8,241 nt of DNA, taken from a virus (lineage: Duplodnaviria; Heunggongvirae; Uroviricota; Caudoviricetes). Of this stretch, positions 1-8,241 are shown piece after piece; the stretch's first letter is position 1, and each line of letters opens with the position of its first letter. Under the pieces are notes generated by a model that was not told the origin of the DNA, ran no database searches, and saw only the letters and a program-made list of their open reading frames with translations. The translations under genes were made by a program, and so were the position numbers. The stretch is taken from positions 1 through 8,241 of the IMG/VR virus record IMGVR_UViG_2579778635_000004; one strand, given 5' to 3'.

Positions 1-1
1 G

Positions 2-718
2 AGTCATGCGGTTTTTCCTGGCATCGTGCTTGCCTGGATTCTGGGGTTACCTCTGGCTACAGGGGCATTTATCGCCGGAGTATTCTGCGCGGTGGCGACG
101 GGATACCTGAAAGACAACAGCCGAATCAAGCAAGATACAGTGATGGGGATTGTTTTTTCTGGCATGTTTGCCGCAGGTCTGATCTTGTATATTGCAGTCA
201 AACCAGACATACATCTTGACCATATTCTTTTCGGCGACATGCTCGGGGTAACCATCGGCGATATAATCCAGACGATGATTATTGCCGGGCTGGTTACACT
301 TGTTATTAGCGTAAAATGGCGGGATTTTTTGCTGTTCAGCTTTGATTATCAACAGGCGCAGGTAAGCGGTTTGCATACGCGATGGCTGCATTATGGGCTG
401 CTGTGCATGGTTTCCCTGACCATTGTGGCGACGCTGAAAGCAGTAGGTATCATTCTCTCCATTTCTCTGCTCATTGCGCCTGGCGCCATTGCGGTACTCC
501 TGACACAACGCTTTCATATTGCACTCCTACTGGCGACTGGCATATCGGTAATAGTCTCAATGACTGGTGTTTGGCTGTCCTTTTTTATCGACAGCGCACC
601 AGCTCCGACGATTGTCGTCTTATTCGCGGTTGTGTTCATCATGACGTTTACCGTTATCAGTTTCAACGCACGCACAAAGGGAAACGCTCATAGACAGGAT
701 CTGTTATCCCCCAATTAG
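2..718 (+). CDS. sitD: ABC-type divalent-metal (Mn/Fe) uptake permease, inner-membrane subunit; 3' portion only, 5' end lies upstream of the window
   Basis: Frame is open from the window edge (codons phased from nt 2) to TAG at 716-718. Translation (...SHAVFPGIVLAWILGLPLATGAFIAGVFCAVATGYLKDNSRIKQDTVMGIVFSGMFAAGL...) is uniformly hydrophobic with the conserved pattern of ABC-3 (ZnuB/MntB/SitC/SitD) permeases. It is the last gene of a + strand operon lying beside lambdoid prophage genes, the context I recall for sitABCD in E. coli/Shigella. Assignment to sitD rather than another ABC-3 paralogue is from memory and context, not a search. Confidence 0.7.
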   Translation, partial: SHAVFPGIVLAWILGLPLATGAFIAGVFCAVATGYLKDNSRIKQDTVMGIVFSGMFAAGLILYIAVKPDIHLDHILFGDMLGVTIGDIIQTMIIAGLVTLVISVKWRDFLLFSFDYQQAQVSGLHTRWLHYGLLCMVSLTIVATLKAVGIILSISLLIAPGAIAVLLTQRFHIALLLATGISVIVSMTGVWLSFFIDSAPAPTIVVLFAVVFIMTFTVISFNARTKGNAHRQDLLSPN

Positions 719-879
719 CACAACATCCGAGGGCAGCATTGTCCGCTAGTACACTGCAGTCCAGAAAGTCATGGGCGGACGTTGGGAGGAGGTGCAAATC
801 CTCCCATACAAAAAATATATAAAATCAATAATGGATTGAAATTATTCAATACTCTCACCATCGACACTTCACCAGCGAA

Positions 880-921
880 CCGCAGCACGTTTTTGCATAA
901 GGCGTGTCTGCGGTTTTCTTT
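880..921 (+). terminator. Candidate intrinsic terminator downstream of the permease gene
   Basis: Imperfect inverted repeat ccgcagcacg (880-889) / cgtgtctgcgg (903-913, one bulged t) around a 13-nt loop, followed by ttttcttt (914-921). The loop is long, so stability is uncertain. Confidence 0.35.
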
Positions 922-1072
922 ATGATTTATGCACAATGGACAATTTGAAATTATTGATGATTGTATGGTGCATCGTTTTCTGAACCTACACTGATTTTTT
1001 GGTATAGCCTTGCCTAGCCAGTCTTACCGGATCAACCCCTTCGCTATTGCAATACTAACCAAAATCATCAAT

Positions 1073-1104
1073 TTGACAGCGATTAACCAGAATAATAGTA
1101 TACT
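1073..1104 (+). promoter_or_regulatory. Candidate sigma70-type promoter for the diguanylate cyclase gene
   Basis: Perfect -35 hexamer TTGACA at 1073-1078 and a -10-like TATACT at 1099-1104 (20-bp spacing, longer than optimal; alternative AT-rich -10 hexamers lie at 1091-1098). About 70 nt upstream of the ATG at 1174, in AT-rich DNA that also contains a (TA)5 tract at 1146-1156. A Shine-Dalgarno AGGTG sits at 1164-1168, 5 nt before the ATG. Confidence 0.3.
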
Positions 1105-1173
1105 ATCACCAGTAAGAAATTATCGTTATTTGTAGCGATACATATTATATATATATCATTCTCAGGTGCGTAC

Positions 1174-2505
1174 ATGATTATCAACCAGGTACCTATAAAA
1201 ATAAAAATCTTCATCTTTTTATTTTCATGCATCTCTATTATATTTTTGTTACTGCATGAAAATAATGGAATATACATAACACAAACAACACAAATAAGTT
1301 ATAGTGTTTTCATTATTGGGCTTTTTTTCATAAACCTGATGATTTTTATTTTTCTATTACTTTACTATGTCTCTAATCAGAGACAAAGTTATCTCTTAAT
1401 TCTTTCATTCGCGTTTTTGAGCAACACGTATTATTTATTAGAAGTGGCTATTATTTCTTTATCTCCGTTAGGTAACGATTTATCTACAATCTATCAGAAA
1501 TCAAATGATATCGCAATATATTATCTATTCCGTCAGTTCAGCTTTATATCTATAATCTTTCTGGCTGTTTATTCCACCAATGTTAAAAATAAAAGTGTTT
1601 TAGAAGATAAAAGAAACATAATAATTGTTGTTTTGTCAATATTAATTCTTTTTATTACTCCGTTTGTAGCAAAAAATCTAAGCAGTGACAATATAAAATA
1701 TAGTCTTAATATTATACAATACTCGCTGAATCGTCATTTGTCGACGTGGAATATCGTGTGCACCAAAATAATATCAGTATTTTGGCTTGTATTACTTATC
1801 AGCTCATGCATCAGCATACGTAATTACTCAAAAATATGGTTGTGTATAATACTTATTAGTATAGTGTCAGTATGCAATAATCTAATTTTATTGTATTTTA
1901 TTGATAAATCCCATCCTGCATGGTACATGACAAAATTTCTTGAATTGATATCAATGATTTATATTATTTCAACACTCATGTATTATGTTTTCAGGAAATT
2001 AAATCATGCTAATCATATGGCAATTCATGATCCACTAACGAATACATACAATAGAAGATACTTTATTGACTCATTGAAGAATATATCAAAACACCATGAT
2101 TTCTCAGTAATAATGTTAGATATTGACAGTTTCAAAAGCATCAATGACAAATGGGGGCATCATATGGGTGATCAAGTCATAGTAATGGTTACCAGAATAA
2201 TAAAAAAATCCATCAGGAAAGAGGATATATTAGGGCGCTTAGGCGGTGAGGAGTTCGGTATTATCATTAAAGGTAATACTCAAAAGCTCTTGCTATCAAT
2301 TGCAGAGCGAATCAGAAAAAACATTGAAGAGCAATGCTCGGAAAAATTATTATCGCATGGACCTGAGAAAATAACTGTCAGTATTGGTTGCTTTACTTCA
2401 AAAGAGAATAATCTCAGTCCATCTGAAATGTTAGTCAATGCCGATAAAGCGTTATATCAAGCCAAAAGAACCGGAAAAAACAAGGTGATAATTCACTCAA
2501 AATAA
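1174..2505 (+). CDS. Membrane-anchored GGDEF-domain diguanylate cyclase: N-terminal ~8-helix integral membrane sensor-like domain (MASE4/YcdT-like by recollection) plus C-terminal GGDEF domain
   Basis: 443-codon ORF, ATG at 1174 preceded by AGGTG, TAA stop at 2503-2505. The C-terminal ~160 aa carry GGDEF hallmarks: DPLTNTYNRRYF, MLDIDSFKSINDKWGH, active-site GGEEF (nt 2242-2256), I-site RxxD as RKED (nt 2215-2226) at canonical spacing, and KALYQAKRTGKNKV. The N-terminal ~280 aa are about eight hydrophobic segments rich in I/L/F. The gene is very AT-rich (13 G+C in nt 1201-1260 by hand count) against ~50-58% in flanking genes. Confidence 0.9.
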   Translation: MIINQVPIKIKIFIFLFSCISIIFLLLHENNGIYITQTTQISYSVFIIGLFFINLMIFIFLLLYYVSNQRQSYLLILSFAFLSNTYYLLEVAIISLSPLGNDLSTIYQKSNDIAIYYLFRQFSFISIIFLAVYSTNVKNKSVLEDKRNIIIVVLSILILFITPFVAKNLSSDNIKYSLNIIQYSLNRHLSTWNIVCTKIISVFWLVLLISSCISIRNYSKIWLCIILISIVSVCNNLILLYFIDKSHPAWYMTKFLELISMIYIISTLMYYVFRKLNHANHMAIHDPLTNTYNRRYFIDSLKNISKHHDFSVIMLDIDSFKSINDKWGHHMGDQVIVMVTRIIKKSIRKEDILGRLGGEEFGIIIKGNTQKLLLSIAERIRKNIEEQCSEKLLSHGPEKITVSIGCFTSKENNLSPSEMLVNADKALYQAKRTGKNKVIIHSK

Positions 2506-2532
2506 ACACCTTTTTAAAATACAGCCCCAATA

Positions 2533-2569
2533 AACTGCAGAATATTATCCCATATAATATCCTGCAGTT
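2533..2569. repeat. Near-perfect 16-bp-arm palindrome in the convergent intergenic gap between the cyclase gene and tfa
   Basis: aactgcagaatattat (2533-2548) / loop cccat (2549-2553) / ataatatcctgcagtt (2554-2569); the arms are reverse complements with one mismatch (a vs g). No strong T-run follows on either strand (a weak TTTATT follows on the - strand). It may be a bidirectional terminator or a protein-binding/recombination site. Confidence 0.4.
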
Positions 2570-2578
2570 CGTAATGCA

Positions 2579-3163
2579 CTATTCGATAATGGGTACTGTT
2601 GGCCATTCAATATCCGGTGCAGTTGTTGTATTAACACGGTTCAGCAACACCCGATACTTCTTCCATGCGGCCAGTAACGCTTTCTCTTCCTCCGTTGCGA
2701 TTTCCAGATCTGCAGCATCCTGAAGCGGCGCAATATGCTCACTGGCTACCTGCATCAGGTTGTTTTTTGTTTCTTCCGCCTCCCGGATCCGGAACAGTTT
2801 TTCTGCTTCCGTATCCTTCACCCAGGCTGTGCCGTTCCACTTCTGAAACTCCCCTTCCGGCGATAACCAGGTAACATTTTTCGGTAACGGACCGAGTTCA
2901 GAAATAAATAACGCGTCGCCGGAAGCCACGTCATAAACCGTTTTACCCCGATGATCTTCAACGAGATGCCACGATGACTCATCACTGTTGAAAACAGCCA
3001 CGAAGCCAGCCGGAATATCTGGCGGTGCAATATCGGTACTGTTTGCTGGCAGACCTGTATGAGGCGGAATATATGCATCACCTTCACCAATAAATTCATT
3101 AGTTCCGGCCAGCAGATTATAAATTGTTATGGTCCGTGGTTGTTCACTCATTCTGAATGCCAT
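2579..3163 (-). CDS. tfa: Tail fibre assembly protein (lambda Tfa family chaperone)
   Basis: 194 aa beginning [58 protein letters not shown]..., which matches lambda-type Tfa as I remember it. ATG at 3161-3163 overlaps the stf stop (TAATG); TAG stop at 2579-2581. Position directly after stf is the canonical lambda order. Confidence 0.95.
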
Positions 3164-6100
3164 TATGCAAGCCTCACAATATAGTTAAATGCGATGTTTT
3201 TGACGGTGTTTTCCGCGTTACCAGCAGCGTTAACGGTGATGGTGTGTCCATGTGAGCCAATCGCAACCGAGTGCGTATGAGCACCAATACCGACAGTATG
3301 TGCGTGAGCACCTGCAGATGCAGCTGTGCCGCTGACACTATGAGTGTGCGCTCCTGCAGCACTTGTATTCACACTGGCCGCAGACACTACCTTATGTACT
3401 GACCCATTTTGTGACCACTGGCTGACTGCTGATGCGCCTGTGACACTATGAGTATGGTTTCCGGCACTTGCGGCTGTACCGCTCACACTGTGCGTATGCG
3501 CCCCGATGTTATTCGTGGATTTAGTGCCGTAATCAAACGACGATGTGGTTTTCGTCCCCAAATCCGTACTGGATGCGCTGGCGCTGTGGGTGTGCGATTT
3601 AATGCCGTCCTGTTCCTGAGACAATACAGCCCGACCACTGGCAGGTTTGCCCTTAATCGTCCAGCCACGCATATCAGGGATCACGCCTGACGGATAAGCG
3701 GCTGCAAGTTTCGGGTATGCAGATTTGTCAAAAGTCTGCCCCTGCATCAGGGCATAACCAGACGGAACGGTATCTGATGGCCACGGGATTGGTGCACCGA
3801 CTGGATAAAACTCTGCAGGAGGATGAGCCGAGGTGTAAAGCTGCGCCCACGGCGACCAGTTTGCGTCGGTCGTATCCCGTCGTGAACGAATAAATGCCGG
3901 AGCATGAGCACCGCTTGTACCACTCCAGCCGATGAGTAACTCACCTTCGCCAACGGCTGTCATCCCTTTCAGGTGAATGATATTTCCATACGTTGTTGGA
4001 TATCCGTTGTTATACACCTCGTATAACTCAAGACCTGCTGCCCCCTGCGTATTGTCTGTCAGCGCGGCTACCCGACCTTTTGAAGCCAGATTAACTGATG
4101 ATACTGCTGTTCCACCTGACGGTAGCGCCCCGATCTCTGATGCCGTTGGCTTATTTCTGGAGTTATAGTCCCTTCGCCAGCCAGGTGAATAATCTGTTCC
4201 GTGATTAATATAGGTAAACTGGGCGTTGGTTGTTCCGCCACCGCTGGATGTGGTCGGAGTGGTAATGCGGATCGTCATCGCTGACTTTATCCCCATTACT
4301 TCAATGACAGCTCCGGCGAGATGAATATTACCGCAGCCAGTATCAGTAATGATTTTATTATTGCCATAAGACCAGGAACCCTTGCACATCCAGTATGGAT
4401 GGTTAAATGCTCCCTGAGAATCCAGCCACTCGATAAACTGTGCAGTCGTCCAGTTTCCTGTTGTTGTGCTTACTGACCCACCGAAGGCACGGCAGGCACC
4501 AATATTTTTCGTAAAGGTGTCTTTGCCAGGGATATCCGCACCGTTCTGATCTTTCTGCAGACGTTTCTCAGCATTGTCATTGGCTGCTTTTACTGCCTTT
4601 GGCGTTGCCGCCAGCGTTTCAGACGTGCTGTTGGTCGCGCTGCTTAGCTGGATTATCCCTTTCTGTGCTGTCGTTGCATCCTGTGCGGTGTATTTCCCGT
4701 TAGCCAGGTCATACGCGGCCTTAACGGCTTTTGGTGTTGCCGCCAGTGACTCGGAAGTGCTGTTAGTCGCACTACTGAGCTGTACTATCCCCTTTTTTGT
4801 CGTGCTCGCATCCTCAAGCGCCACGGCGGATGCAATATCCTCTGCCCGTTTTGCCGCTGTCTCAGCGCGCGTTGCTGCAGATTCCGCCGTACTTTTGCTC
4901 TGAGCTGCTGCCTTCGCACTACCAGCAGCCTCTGTCGCCTTCGTGGATGCCGTCGTGGCGCTGCCCTTCGCTGCTGACGCCTGTCTGGTCGCCTCATCTT
5001 TTGAAGCAGACGCCGATGATGCCGATGACGCCGCCGAACTGGCGGACGATGCCGCTGCCGTTTTTGAGGATTCTGCACGGGTTTCCGACGCTTTCGCGTT
5101 CGTTTCGGATGTCTTCGCTGCGGAAGCTGACCTCGCTGCTGCCGTGGCCTGCTCAGTGGCTTCGCCAGCCTTTGTTGTGGCTGTTGAAGCGGATGATGCG
5201 GCGCTTTCTGCCGATTTTCCGGCGGCGGTGGCACTGGCTGAGGCCTGCCCGGCACTTGTTGACGCGGCACTGGCAGACGACGCAGCCGCTGTTTTTGAGC
5301 CTGCCGCAGCTGAGGCGCTCTGTCCCGCTGCCGTCTCAGAAGACCTGGCGTTCGTCTCGGACGTTTTTGCCGCCTTCGCGGAATTTCCTGCCGCCGTTGC
5401 CGAGGAAGCTGCGCTACTGGCGCTCAAGGATGCGTTCGTTTCTGATGATTTCGCTGCCTCTTTTGAGGCCGCCGCATCCCGGGCTGAAGTGGCGGCTTCT
5501 GACGCTTTCGTCGTCGCAGTGGATGCAGAAGTGGCTGCTGATTTTTGTGACGCTGCAGCATTCGTTTCTGACGTTTTCGCGGCACCGGCACTGGTGGCCG
5601 CCGCGCTTTTTGAGGACTCTGCAGCGGCAGCACTTTTTGATGCTTCAGTGGCCTTTGTTGATGCCGTTCCTGCGCTGGAAGACGCCTCCTGAGCCGACGT
5701 CGCGGCCTGTCCGGCTGACGTGCTGGCTGCACGCGCTGAGCCTGCAGCATCAGTCGCATGGGTTGCCGCCTCACTGGCAGATGTGCCGGCATCACTGGCT
5801 GACTTCTTCGCGGCTGCCGTGTTCTGTGCCACCGCGGACGCGTTACGCGCCACCTCTTCCACCATCAGTTCAAAACGGCGCAGAGCCTCCGGACGGGCAT
5901 CATCCTCCGTCATGGCACCGAGAAAATCATTCAGCGTACCGGGTCGGGAATCTTCATACACGGTGATGGTCCCGGCATGTGACGGCGGGAATCCTTCCAC
6001 CAACAGAATAACGCTGTACTGACCGTACTCAACGTCCATGCTGTAACGCCCGGCTTCATCCGGATTTTCTGAGGCCAGCGTGTTCACCACCACCGTGGTG

Positions 6101-6189
6101 CTGTTACGTTTTGCTTTCAGCTGGATTGTGCAGTTCTGTACCGGTTTTCCTGTGCCGTCTTTCAGTACACCTGAAATCTTTACTGCCAT
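3163..6189 (-). CDS. stf: Side tail fibre protein (lambda Stf family), mosaic
   Basis: Long uninterrupted ORF. The ATG at 6187-6189 ([37 protein letters not shown]...) is the likely start, with GGGG 6-9 nt upstream; the ORF track's GTG at 6195 would add only MN. The N-terminus, the Ala/Ser/Thr-rich repeats with recurring AK(T/S)SETNA motifs, the His-rich HxH C-terminal region ([40 protein letters not shown]) and the final [18 protein letters not shown] all resemble lambda Stf. TAA stop at 3163-3165. Confidence 0.95.
4590..4810 (-). repeat. Tandem duplication inside stf encoding two copies of a conserved tail-fibre repeat motif
   Basis: The protein has [28 protein letters not shown] and [28 protein letters not shown] separated by ~15 aa. 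The DNA copies (about 4594-4675 and 4723-4806) are visibly similar, e.g. ctttggcgttgccgccagcgtttcagacgtgctgttggtcgc vs cttttggtgttgccgccagtgactcggaagtgctgttagtcgc. Confidence 0.75.
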
Positions 6190-6200
6190 ATTCACCCCAC

Positions 6201-6227
6201 AAAAAAGCCCGCCTGAACCGGCGGGCT
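6201..6227 (-). terminator. Intrinsic terminator between lom and stf (- strand)
   Basis: On the - strand: AGCCCGCC (6227-6220) / 6-nt loop / GGCGGGCT (6213-6206), GC-rich 8-bp stem, immediately followed by TTTTTT (complement of a 6201-6206), then GTGGGG and the stf ATG. Confidence 0.6.
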
Positions 6228-6253
6228 GTCATAACACTGTGTTACCTGGCTAA

Positions 6254-6853
6254 TCAGAACTTATAACCGACACCCATGATGAAACCGTCAGTGCGCCAGT
6301 CGCCACTGCCGGAGCCTTCATAAGCAATATCAATGGCCACGGATTCGGTCGGGTTAAACTGCACGCCAGCTCCCCACGCCAGAGACGTGTTGCTGTGGCG
6401 ACCGTCATCACTTCCGGTCAGCACATCGTGCGTTTTCCCCTTGTTGTCAGTTACGCGAAGATAATCCCCGGAGAAAGTCGACACACGGCTGTAAGCCACA
6501 CCCGCCATCGCATACGCGCTGAACCATTCATTCACGCGCACAGACGGCCCCGCCATTACGCTGAACCAGCGGTTACGAACGGAATCTTCATGCCAGCGGG
6601 TATCGCTGTAACGGGTCAGCTGGCGATTCTTGTCTCCTGCATAGCTGAATGACGTCACCAGCCCCAACGTGTCCGTAAACTCATAACGGTATTTCACGTT
6701 AATCCCGTTCAGATCATCACTGCCGGGAACGTTCGTCGAGGCATGAAGATACCCCGCGCTCAGCGTGGACTGATGTTCAGACGCCCATGCAGGCGCACCG
6801 GATACGGCCAGACAAATGGCTGCGGACAAAATTGCTGCACAAACTTTACGCAT
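6254..6853 (-). CDS. lom: Lom outer-membrane protein (Ail/Lom/PagC/OmpX family beta-barrel), prophage-encoded
   Basis: 199 aa: MRKVCAAILSAAICLAVSGAPAWASEHQSTLSAGYLHASTNVPGSDDLNGINVKYRYEFTDTLGLVTSFSYAGDKNRQL...GFIMGVGYKF. It has a signal peptide (cleavage likely after AWA), alternating beta-strand pattern and C-terminal aromatic residue, and closely matches lambda Lom as I recall it. SD GAGAGG precedes the ATG at 6851-6853; it lies between J and stf as in lambda. Confidence 0.95.
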   Translation of the reverse strand: MRKVCAAILSAAICLAVSGAPAWASEHQSTLSAGYLHASTNVPGSDDLNGINVKYRYEFTDTLGLVTSFSYAGDKNRQLTRYSDTRWHEDSVRNRWFSVMAGPSVRVNEWFSAYAMAGVAYSRVSTFSGDYLRVTDNKGKTHDVLTGSDDGRHSNTSLAWGAGVQFNPTESVAIDIAYEGSGSGDWRTDGFIMGVGYKF

Positions 6854-6877
6854 AATTACCTCTCGCTTTTCTGCAAT

Positions 6878-6901
6878 AAAAAAGGCGTCATTCCTGACGC
6901 C
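6878..6901 (-). terminator. Candidate intrinsic terminator between J and lom (- strand)
   Basis: On the - strand: GGCGTCA (6901-6895) / loop GGAA / TGACGCC (6890-6884), followed by TTTTTT (complement of a 6878-6883). It sits 22 nt after the J stop (TGA at 6924-6926) and before the lom SD. Confidence 0.5.
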
Positions 6902-6923
6902 ATTTATTGGGGTTATAAATATT

Positions 6924-8241
6924 TCAACGAATACTGATGCCGGAAGCAGCTTTTTTGGTCACAATCACCGTACAGTCGGTGATATTGCCTGCCCCCTGAT
7001 TGCCTTTCTGGAAAATCTTAAACTCCAGAGTGACGCTACCACCACCACTAGGCATATCAATAACTGCACTGTAACTACCGGGAATGGCCCCTTTAGTTTC
7101 TCTGGATGCGATTAATACGCCGTTTTTGCGAACTTCAAAACCATAACCCGTGTATCGCGTGCCTCCTGGGTTATTTCCGCTCCCCGGATCGTCATACGCT
7201 ATACCGTTAAAAATAATGGGCGGAATAATAATCTGGCGGTCAAAGTTATGATCATCGCTGATGGTGACTGTAACCGTACCGTTTGGTGTTTCCGTGTTAC
7301 CCCACGTACCGACTTTTTTCGGGAAGGCTTTTGATACAGCTTTAACGAAATCCCCTCTGACCTGGGTCGCCTCCAGCATGCCCTTAATCGTACAGTTCTG
7401 GTTAATCGTGACATTGTTGAGCGTTCCTGAGTTCGCATTCACACTGCCACTGATATCCGCATTTTTAGCGGTCAGCTTTCCGTCTGATGTCAGGGAAAAT
7501 ACCGGAGGACTGCCACCGCTGGTAATGGTGGGGGCCGTCAGGCGCTTCAGGAACACGTCGTTCATGAATATCTGGTTGCCCTGCGCCACAAACATCGGCG
7601 TTTCATTCCCGTTTGCCGGGTCAATAAACGCGATACGGTTAGCGGCAACCAGAAACTGGCTCAGCTTGCCTTCCTCCGTGTCCTCCATGCTGAGGCCAAT
7701 ACCCGCGACATAATGTTTGCCGTCTTTGGTCTGCTCAATTTTGACGCCCCACATGGCATTCCATTTATCGTTAGCGTCCTTCCACTCTTTCGAAAACTCA
7801 TCCAGTCTGCTGGCGTTATCCTCCGTCAGATCGACTTTTTCCAGCAGCTCCTTGCCGAGATGAGATTCGGTTATCTTGCCTTTGAAAAAATCCAGGTAAC
7901 CTTCCGCATCATCGCTCGCCCGACCGACGGCTTCCACGAATGCCGATTTGCCAACGGTGTTCACACTGCGGATATAAAAGTAATAATCATGGCCCGGTTT
8001 GATATTGATACTGGCGGCTATCCAGTACAGCGCCGTACCAAGATAGCGGGCTGTGGTTTCAACCTGCCTGATATCGGTAATCCGCTTTTCCGAGAACCAG
8101 AACTCAAACTGTACCGTCGGGTCATAAACGGCAAGATGCGGCGTGGCGGTTATCTGAAAATAGCCCGGCGTCAGCTCAATCCTCGACGGTGCTGCCGGTG
8201 CGGCAATCCGGAACGATACCGACGCCGGATCGCCCTGCTGC
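6924..8241 (-). CDS. J: Tail tip / host-specificity protein J (central tail fibre), C-terminal ~439 aa; 5' end lies beyond the right edge of the window
   Basis: The frame stays open on the - strand from the window edge to TGA at 6924-6926; the ORF track's 346-aa ORF is only the part after an internal GTG. Hand translation upstream of that GTG gives ...[45 protein letters not shown]..., matching the lambda J C-terminal region as I recall it. The last ~130 aa differ from lambda J. Confidence 0.93.

Follow-up and report, generated by a model that had tools for sequence, protein, structure and literature searches.

The gene dgcX was described in 2014 in the Escherichia coli O104:H4 of the German outbreak (Richter et al., PMC4287979). 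In that study, the active site (A-site) of the DgcX protein was found to be intact, with an RxxD inhibitory site (I-site) five residues upstream of it; the N-terminal domain of ∼270 amino acids (aa) was assigned eight helices and recognised as common to YcdT and YeaI, and the gene always adjoined lambdoid prophage DNA, in strain SE11 at a site beside uspF-ompN. A dgcX::lacZ fusion was the strongest expressed of the diguanylate cyclase gene fusions tested in E. coli, and depended on both RpoD and RpoS (PMC4287979). Cimdins-Ahne et al. (2023; PMC10459773) call DgcX a MASE4-GGDEF protein, and found that its overexpression leads to cellulose production and to the rdar (red, dry and rough) morphotype, both effects disappearing when GGEEF is changed to GGEAF or GGAAF. 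It has been proposed that the 2011 O104:H4 strain and enteroaggregative (EAEC) and enterotoxigenic E. coli lineages owe their strong adherence and biofilm formation in part to DgcX, and genome annotation thus gains from spotting dgcX. Here, we analyse a stretch of 8,241 nucleotides (nt), hereafter the window, which covers positions 1 to 8,241 of the IMG/VR virus record IMGVR_UViG_2579778635_000004 and contains an open reading frame (ORF) at 1174-2505 on the plus strand that we consider, with high confidence, to be an allele of dgcX, carried as cargo diguanylate cyclase gene by lambdoid prophages of E. coli.

This ORF is uninterrupted, starts with ATG and encodes 443 aa. It shares 99.3% nucleotide identity with dgcX of O104:H4 strain HUSEC2011, and 438 of the 443 residues are identical between its product and the HUSEC2011 protein WP_000586343.1, the substitutions being I194T, C196Y, K245Q, S319N and I440T (window residue given first). 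The published DgcX mutants E359A and E360A (PMC10459773) follow a numbering that equals that of the window protein, and it is on this agreement, together with the near-identity to HUSEC2011, that the identification as DgcX is based. Megablast detected dgcX in 771 of 5426 complete E. coli genomes, at an allele identity of at least 99% in 623 of them, 95-99% in 61 and 90-95% in 86. The closest relatives in E. coli K-12 are CdgI (YeaI; 38% identity over 426 aa), which is the nearest, and DgcT (YcdT; 37% identity over 408 aa). The first-pass annotation of the window had proposed a divergent paralogue of the YcdT/DgcT family, which these identities bear out; it did not recognise that the protein had already been named and characterised as DgcX. 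Richter et al. had reported the active A-site, the I-site and the eight-helix sensor in common with YcdT as early as 2014, and the finding is thus already known.

The protein consists of a membrane domain (aa 8-275, positions 1195-1998) with eight transmembrane helices according to Pfam MASE4 and AlphaFold, and of a GGDEF catalytic domain (aa 283-437, positions 2020-2484) placed by Pfam, TIGR00254 and an alignment with PleD. The Pfam MASE4 profile (PF17158) matched aa 40-274 (positions 1291-1995) over 234 of its 239 positions with an E-value of 5.7e-35 and 121.3 bits (cutoff 28.4), and the Pfam GGDEF profile (PF00990) matched aa 283-437 with an E-value of 3.5e-44 and 150.9 bits (cutoff 23.8), both far above their gathering scores; TIGR00254 for GGDEF gave an E-value of 1.1e-47 and 161.9 bits (cutoff 37.4). 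The generic GGDEF domain model was the only one above its cutoff in the NCBIfam scan, with no equivalog near threshold, and assignments to DgcQ, DgcN, DgcJ, AdrA and others were rejected as their equivalog scores fell far below the NCBIfam thresholds. Matches in PHROGs were limited to GGDEF-domain families of unknown function, and PADLOC returned no match, and thus no link to a known defence system. Motifs placed by script agreed exactly with the first-pass annotation, which had located the GGEEF motif at 2242-2256 and RKED at 2215-2226 in canonical spacing: the A-site GGEEF corresponds to G357-F361, with E359 and E360 being the positions mutated in PMC10459773, and the primary I-site RKED (RxxD) to R348-D351, separated from GGEEF by the five residues ILGRL. 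That annotation was also correct in tracing the 11-mer NDIAIYYLFRQ to YcdT/DgcT, this MASE4 signature (positions 1504-1536, aa 111-121) being identical in K-12 DgcT; it lies at the periplasmic start of transmembrane helix 4 (TM4) and includes R120.

Two GGDEF domains of a dimer join two molecules of guanosine triphosphate (GTP) into cyclic di-GMP (c-di-GMP) in GGDEF cyclases, and the roles of the PleD residues that take part in this, in Mg2+, GTP and phosphate binding and in the I-site, are established for the family. PleD, among the best solved relatives, aligns to aa 271-439 of DgcX with an E-value of 2.6e-24 (PleD numbering being the HMMER position index of chain 1w25_A plus one). In this alignment D316, K321, N324 and D333 of DgcX correspond to D327, K332, N335 and D344 of PleD, R348 and D351 to R359 and D362, E359 and E360 to E370 and E371, R379 to R390 and K431 to K442; the sole differing pair, a conservative one, is K435 at the place of R446. 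Catalytic competence, as predicted by the first-pass annotation, is thus supported by every Mg2+, GTP and phosphate residue of PleD except at K435, and by the published GGEEF-dependent phenotypes (PMC10459773). The intact I-site that it described is likewise found, with R348xxD351 in canonical spacing and R379 in addition as the counterpart of PleD R390; R348, D351 and R379 are all invariant in our alignment A3. Codon 435 lies at 2476-2478; the PleD residue at this position is a phosphate contact, and K is found throughout the DgcX clade, in all A3 sequences of at least 67% identity, while the position is occupied by R in DgcT and an E. albertii relative, and by G in the inactive CdgI.

The membrane domain was modelled with AlphaFold2 both within the full-length protein (on a 20-sequence alignment) and on its own (aa 1-282, on a 10-sequence alignment). 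Both models have a predicted local distance difference test score of 78, and the domain-only model has a predicted template modelling score of 0.78. The same eight helices appear in both with minor differences at helix ends; they span, in the full-length model, aa 8-27, 40-67, 72-96, 103-134, 146-169, 194-214, 220-241 and 249-285, the last one extending into the GGDEF linker. The loops between them have 4-13 residues, except for the 24-residue loop 170-193, which holds a small beta-hairpin, and the models thus have no periplasmic domain. The first-pass annotation, which had counted about eight hydrophobic helices ahead of GGDEF with short loops and no periplasmic domain, is upheld here by Pfam MASE4 and by the two models. 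SMART finds six helices in DgcX according to Cimdins-Ahne et al. (PMC10459773), whereas the AlphaFold models support the eight of Richter et al. (PMC4287979). Since the GGDEF domain must be cytoplasmic, both the N- and the C-terminus are presumably inside, and the distribution of K and R agrees with such a predicted topology, K9, K11, R70, K138, K140, K146, R147, R216 and K220 all falling in predicted cytoplasmic segments.

MASE4 is a tiny family that has been seen in Enterobacteriaceae only, and each of its members that was checked carries a GGDEF fusion. A search with a MASE4-only profile against 1.84 billion cluster representatives gave just 89 matches at E≤0.001; all 10 distant full-length relatives that were checked combine MASE4 with GGDEF, and the named members all belong to Enterobacteriaceae (Enterobacter, Kluyvera, Entomohabitans, Salmonella, Citrobacter and Atlantibacter). 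In a family-wide alignment of 26 sequences (A6), just one MASE4 residue is invariant, R120 in TM4, and W204 and W250 are conserved in at least 90%. The MASE4 model bears a weak resemblance to seven-helix bundles of the G-protein-coupled receptor (GPCR) type.

The surroundings of dgcX in the window are those of a lambdoid prophage, and the gene itself stands out by a GC content of 29.6%, versus ∼52% for the rest of the window. Downstream and on the opposite strand lie the tail fibre assembly gene tfa (2579-3163, minus strand; 194 aa, Caudo_TAP), which is convergent with dgcX and ∼92% identical to the lambda tfa region, then the side tail fibre gene, lom and the 3' part of J. On the side opposite tfa, dgcX is flanked by a segment resembling the lambda b region (767-913, minus strand), which shares 77.6% identity with the lambda interval 24162-24308 between ea47 and ea31. 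Bracketed as it is by this b-region-like DNA and tfa, dgcX has the place and the strand that ea47 has in lambda. Further upstream, the window contains the 3' end of sitD (positions 2-718).

E. coli STK77-E shares 99.8% identity with nt 1-2724 of the window, and 100% over nt 1000-2600, and its gene order ompN-uspF-sitABCD-dgcX-tfa-stf-lom-J agrees with the description in PMC4287979. It is homologous to K-12 from uspF onwards, across ttcC (a remnant of the Rac attR) and ∼150 bp into the end of Rac, after which sitABCD begins; because ttcC stands beyond sitABCD, both sitABCD and dgcX are placed inside the arm of a prophage at the Rac site. No lambda att core was found in the window, even with two mismatches allowed, and the window locus is therefore not of the attB-lambda type. 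In loci of that type (HUSEC2011 and N196; 5346-5613 in L004/L006), a 15-bp att core lies between ybhB and dgcX and is followed by ∼270 bp that match the lambda P arm and the b-region DNA beside it at roughly 90% identity, and since core and P arm separate ybhB from dgcX, the gene is on the phage side of attR. Overall, dgcX lies within the prophage att boundaries in three loci (L001, L004 and L006). Junction-specific searches on the 5426 complete genomes retrieved the lambda-P-arm/dgcX junction in 605 genomes, the argW-island/dgcX junction (with the 94% allele) in 86 and the sitD/dgcX junction in 42. By megablast, the 1.7-kb dgcX cassette had no match among the PLSDB plasmids, and 16 short prophage-type contigs of IMG/VR match it.

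Other features of the window and of this arm may be mentioned here. The iron/manganese transporter operon sitABCD (7686-11719 in L001) appears to be a second cargo block in the same Rac-site lambdoid arm. The side tail fibre gene (3163-6195, minus strand) encodes 1010 aa with phage_tail_N, Phage_fiber_2 and Collar domains, and its centre is a long Ala/Ser/Thr-rich stretch of low complexity with ∼62% GC and many overlapping spurious ORFs on both strands. The stretch 814-930 (minus strand) is annotated in STK77-E as a RefSeq pseudogene, 'capsid protein, incomplete', a label that looks artefactual because the stretch consists of the lambda b-region-like segment and a terminator-like hairpin. No tandem repeats were found in the window.

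The sequences around dgcX suggest that it may form an autonomous expression unit, with a promoter candidate and flanking hairpins, although the underlying sequence scans do not rise above chance; the lacZ fusion was strong (PMC4287979). The candidate is a sigma-70-like promoter (1073-1101, plus strand) with TTGACA and TAGTAT separated by a 17-nt spacer, matching 10 of 12 consensus positions 73 nt upstream of the ATG, and it is kept in the attB-type loci. A Shine-Dalgarno sequence AGGTG (1164-1168, plus strand) precedes the ATG by 5 nt. The dgcX leader is without a GGA motif, whereas the leaders of dgcT and cdgI, both reported to be CsrA-repressed (PMC5635695), do contain it; a GGA-free leader would fit high expression of dgcX. 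Upstream of the promoter candidate lies an intrinsic-terminator-like element (877-921, plus strand), a GC-rich hairpin followed by TTTTCTTTAT; the hairpin (877-916) folds with −25.4 kcal/mol and a z-score of −3.6, the element is kept in every dgcX context, and K-12 has a 40-bp match to it near the right end of its Rac prophage. Between the convergent dgcX and tfa, an inverted repeat (2533-2569) forms a 17-bp perfect stem on the minus-strand RNA; its folding z-scores are −5.7 and −5.9, and it is also kept in all contexts. A terminator scan of the window returned no canonical site, and both hairpins emerged on folding only.

A more distant allele, of 94% nucleotide identity, is found in E. coli SCU-113 (6001-7332 in L005). 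It has 27 amino acid differences, RKED being changed to RKDD, and lies in the argW-dsdC island beside an alpha/beta hydrolase gene, as in the 86 complete genomes mentioned above. Just a 96-bp tfa fragment is left downstream of it, and its -35 element is degraded to TTTAAT.

Several observations weigh against an active and prophage-borne cyclase with its own expression signals. Deletion of dgcX in strain Fec101 had a minor phenotype only (PMC10459773), and the activity of DgcX is deduced from motif-dependent phenotypes. Promoter and terminators were called from consensus matches, whose numbers do not exceed those in shuffled sequences; no isolated phage genome in INPHARED matches the 1.7-kb dgcX cassette by megablast; K435 replaces the phosphate contact R446 of PleD across the DgcX clade; and C196 might impair the allele of the window. 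With respect to K435, one may ask whether DgcX could be devoid of catalysis and, like CdgI, serve as a receptor for c-di-GMP or as a scaffold by way of its I-site and its contacts with proteins. CdgI, its closest K-12 relative, shares the MASE4-GGDEF architecture; its RxxD I-site is intact, and it both binds c-di-GMP and makes contact with other GGDEF domains (PMC5635695). Its A-site is degenerate (EGEVF), however, whereas DgcX has GGEEF and all Mg2+ and substrate residues, and the published DgcX phenotypes depend on E360 and the GGEEF motif (PMC10459773); we thus reject a degenerate receptor of the CdgI kind as highly improbable. Somewhat less remote, but still improbable, is that the window carries a hypomorphic or misfolded allele, in which Y196C could leave an intact gene poorly active or deregulated in its lineage. 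Codon 196 (1759-1761) lies at the start of TM6, and the cysteine is unique to the window allele: each of the other 19 sequences in alignment A3 has an aromatic residue there, Y or F being found in the distant paralogues as well as in the four alleles compared directly (O104:H4, N196, argW-island and P0001), and full identity over nt 1000-2600, codon 196 included, is found in just 3 complete genomes. Yet this is a single substitution at a helix end, outside the columns conserved in at least 90% of alignment A6, and the reading frame and catalytic residues are all intact.

The other question is whether dgcX belongs to the prophage or to its neighbourhood. Richter et al. suggested that it hitch-hikes by specialised transduction (PMC4287979), and a review remarked that dgcX is not part of a mobile element. 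Bacterial DNA that adjoins prophages and is moved by their aberrant excision would agree with the missing match among isolated phages, and with the many loci where the adjoining prophage is just a remnant. We nevertheless regard this origin as unlikely, for the att core and lambda-like P arm of the attB-type loci lie outside dgcX, toward ybhB, at a junction shared by hundreds of genomes; in the window the gene is bracketed by lambda-like DNA in the position and orientation of ea47; and in STK77-E the Rac attR remnant stands beyond sitABCD, which leaves sitABCD and dgcX inside the border. The placement within the prophage refines both the specialised-transduction (PMC4287979) and the 'not mobile element' views, modestly, as it rests on prophage remnants. 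A wider proposal, which we put forward only tentatively, is that dgcX is a true lambdoid cargo gene that replaced ea47 and spreads by lysogeny, and that MASE4 forms a GPCR-like seven-helix bundle with an extra N-terminal helix around R120. If the former were true, dgcX would be spread by ordinary lysogeny and not by rare events of specialised transduction, with host c-di-GMP and biofilm being rewired as a lysogenic-conversion trait; if the latter were, the invariant intramembrane R120 could be where a small ligand, lipid-soluble or periplasmic, is bound.

For DgcX as an active prophage-borne cyclase, the favoured course of events can be outlined. Within the b region of the prophage, the gene seems to be equipped with a strong promoter-like site and a Shine-Dalgarno sequence of its own, and a lysogen could therefore express it independently of the phage late genes. 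Anchored in the inner membrane by its eight MASE4 helices, the protein would have both termini on the cytoplasmic side, and the last helix would continue as a linker into the cytoplasmic GGDEF domain. In a dimer, the two GGDEF domains would each bind GTP-Mg2+ and condense the two molecules to c-di-GMP, as family knowledge suggests, while the RxxD site together with R379 should bind the product and limit output, and the MASE4 bundle presumably adjusts the activity to a cue from the membrane or the periplasm. The raised c-di-GMP level would then promote the production of cellulose and biofilm matrix, in line with the published effects of DgcX.

Compared to the loci described so far, the window holds the same gene with the same tail fibre assembly neighbour as in O104:H4, EAEC 55989 and SE11, and the same chromosomal site, uspF-ompN, as that reported for SE11; it differs from these by the sitABCD operon that stands between dgcX and uspF. 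DgcT resembles DgcX in its MASE4-GGDEF architecture and its intact GGEEF and RxxD, but is encoded by a core-genome gene beside pgaABCD, has a gene GC content of 39% versus 30%, and carries R rather than K at PleD R446; its expression was reported as very weak and CsrA-repressed (PMC4287979, PMC5635695). PleD has in common with DgcX a GGDEF domain in which the catalytic residues, the RxxD motif and the equivalent of R390 are all kept, yet its input is formed by receiver domains in place of the eight-helix membrane domain, and the extra I-site arginines of its D2 domain are without counterpart in DgcX. On the phage side, dgcX resembles the accessory genes of the lambda b and late regions ('morons' such as lom, bor and ea47): with tfa on one side and attP on the other, and on the opposite strand to tfa, it stands exactly in the place of ea47, and combines an atypical GC content with its own promoter-like and terminator-like elements. 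It departs from these in that its cargo is a signalling enzyme.
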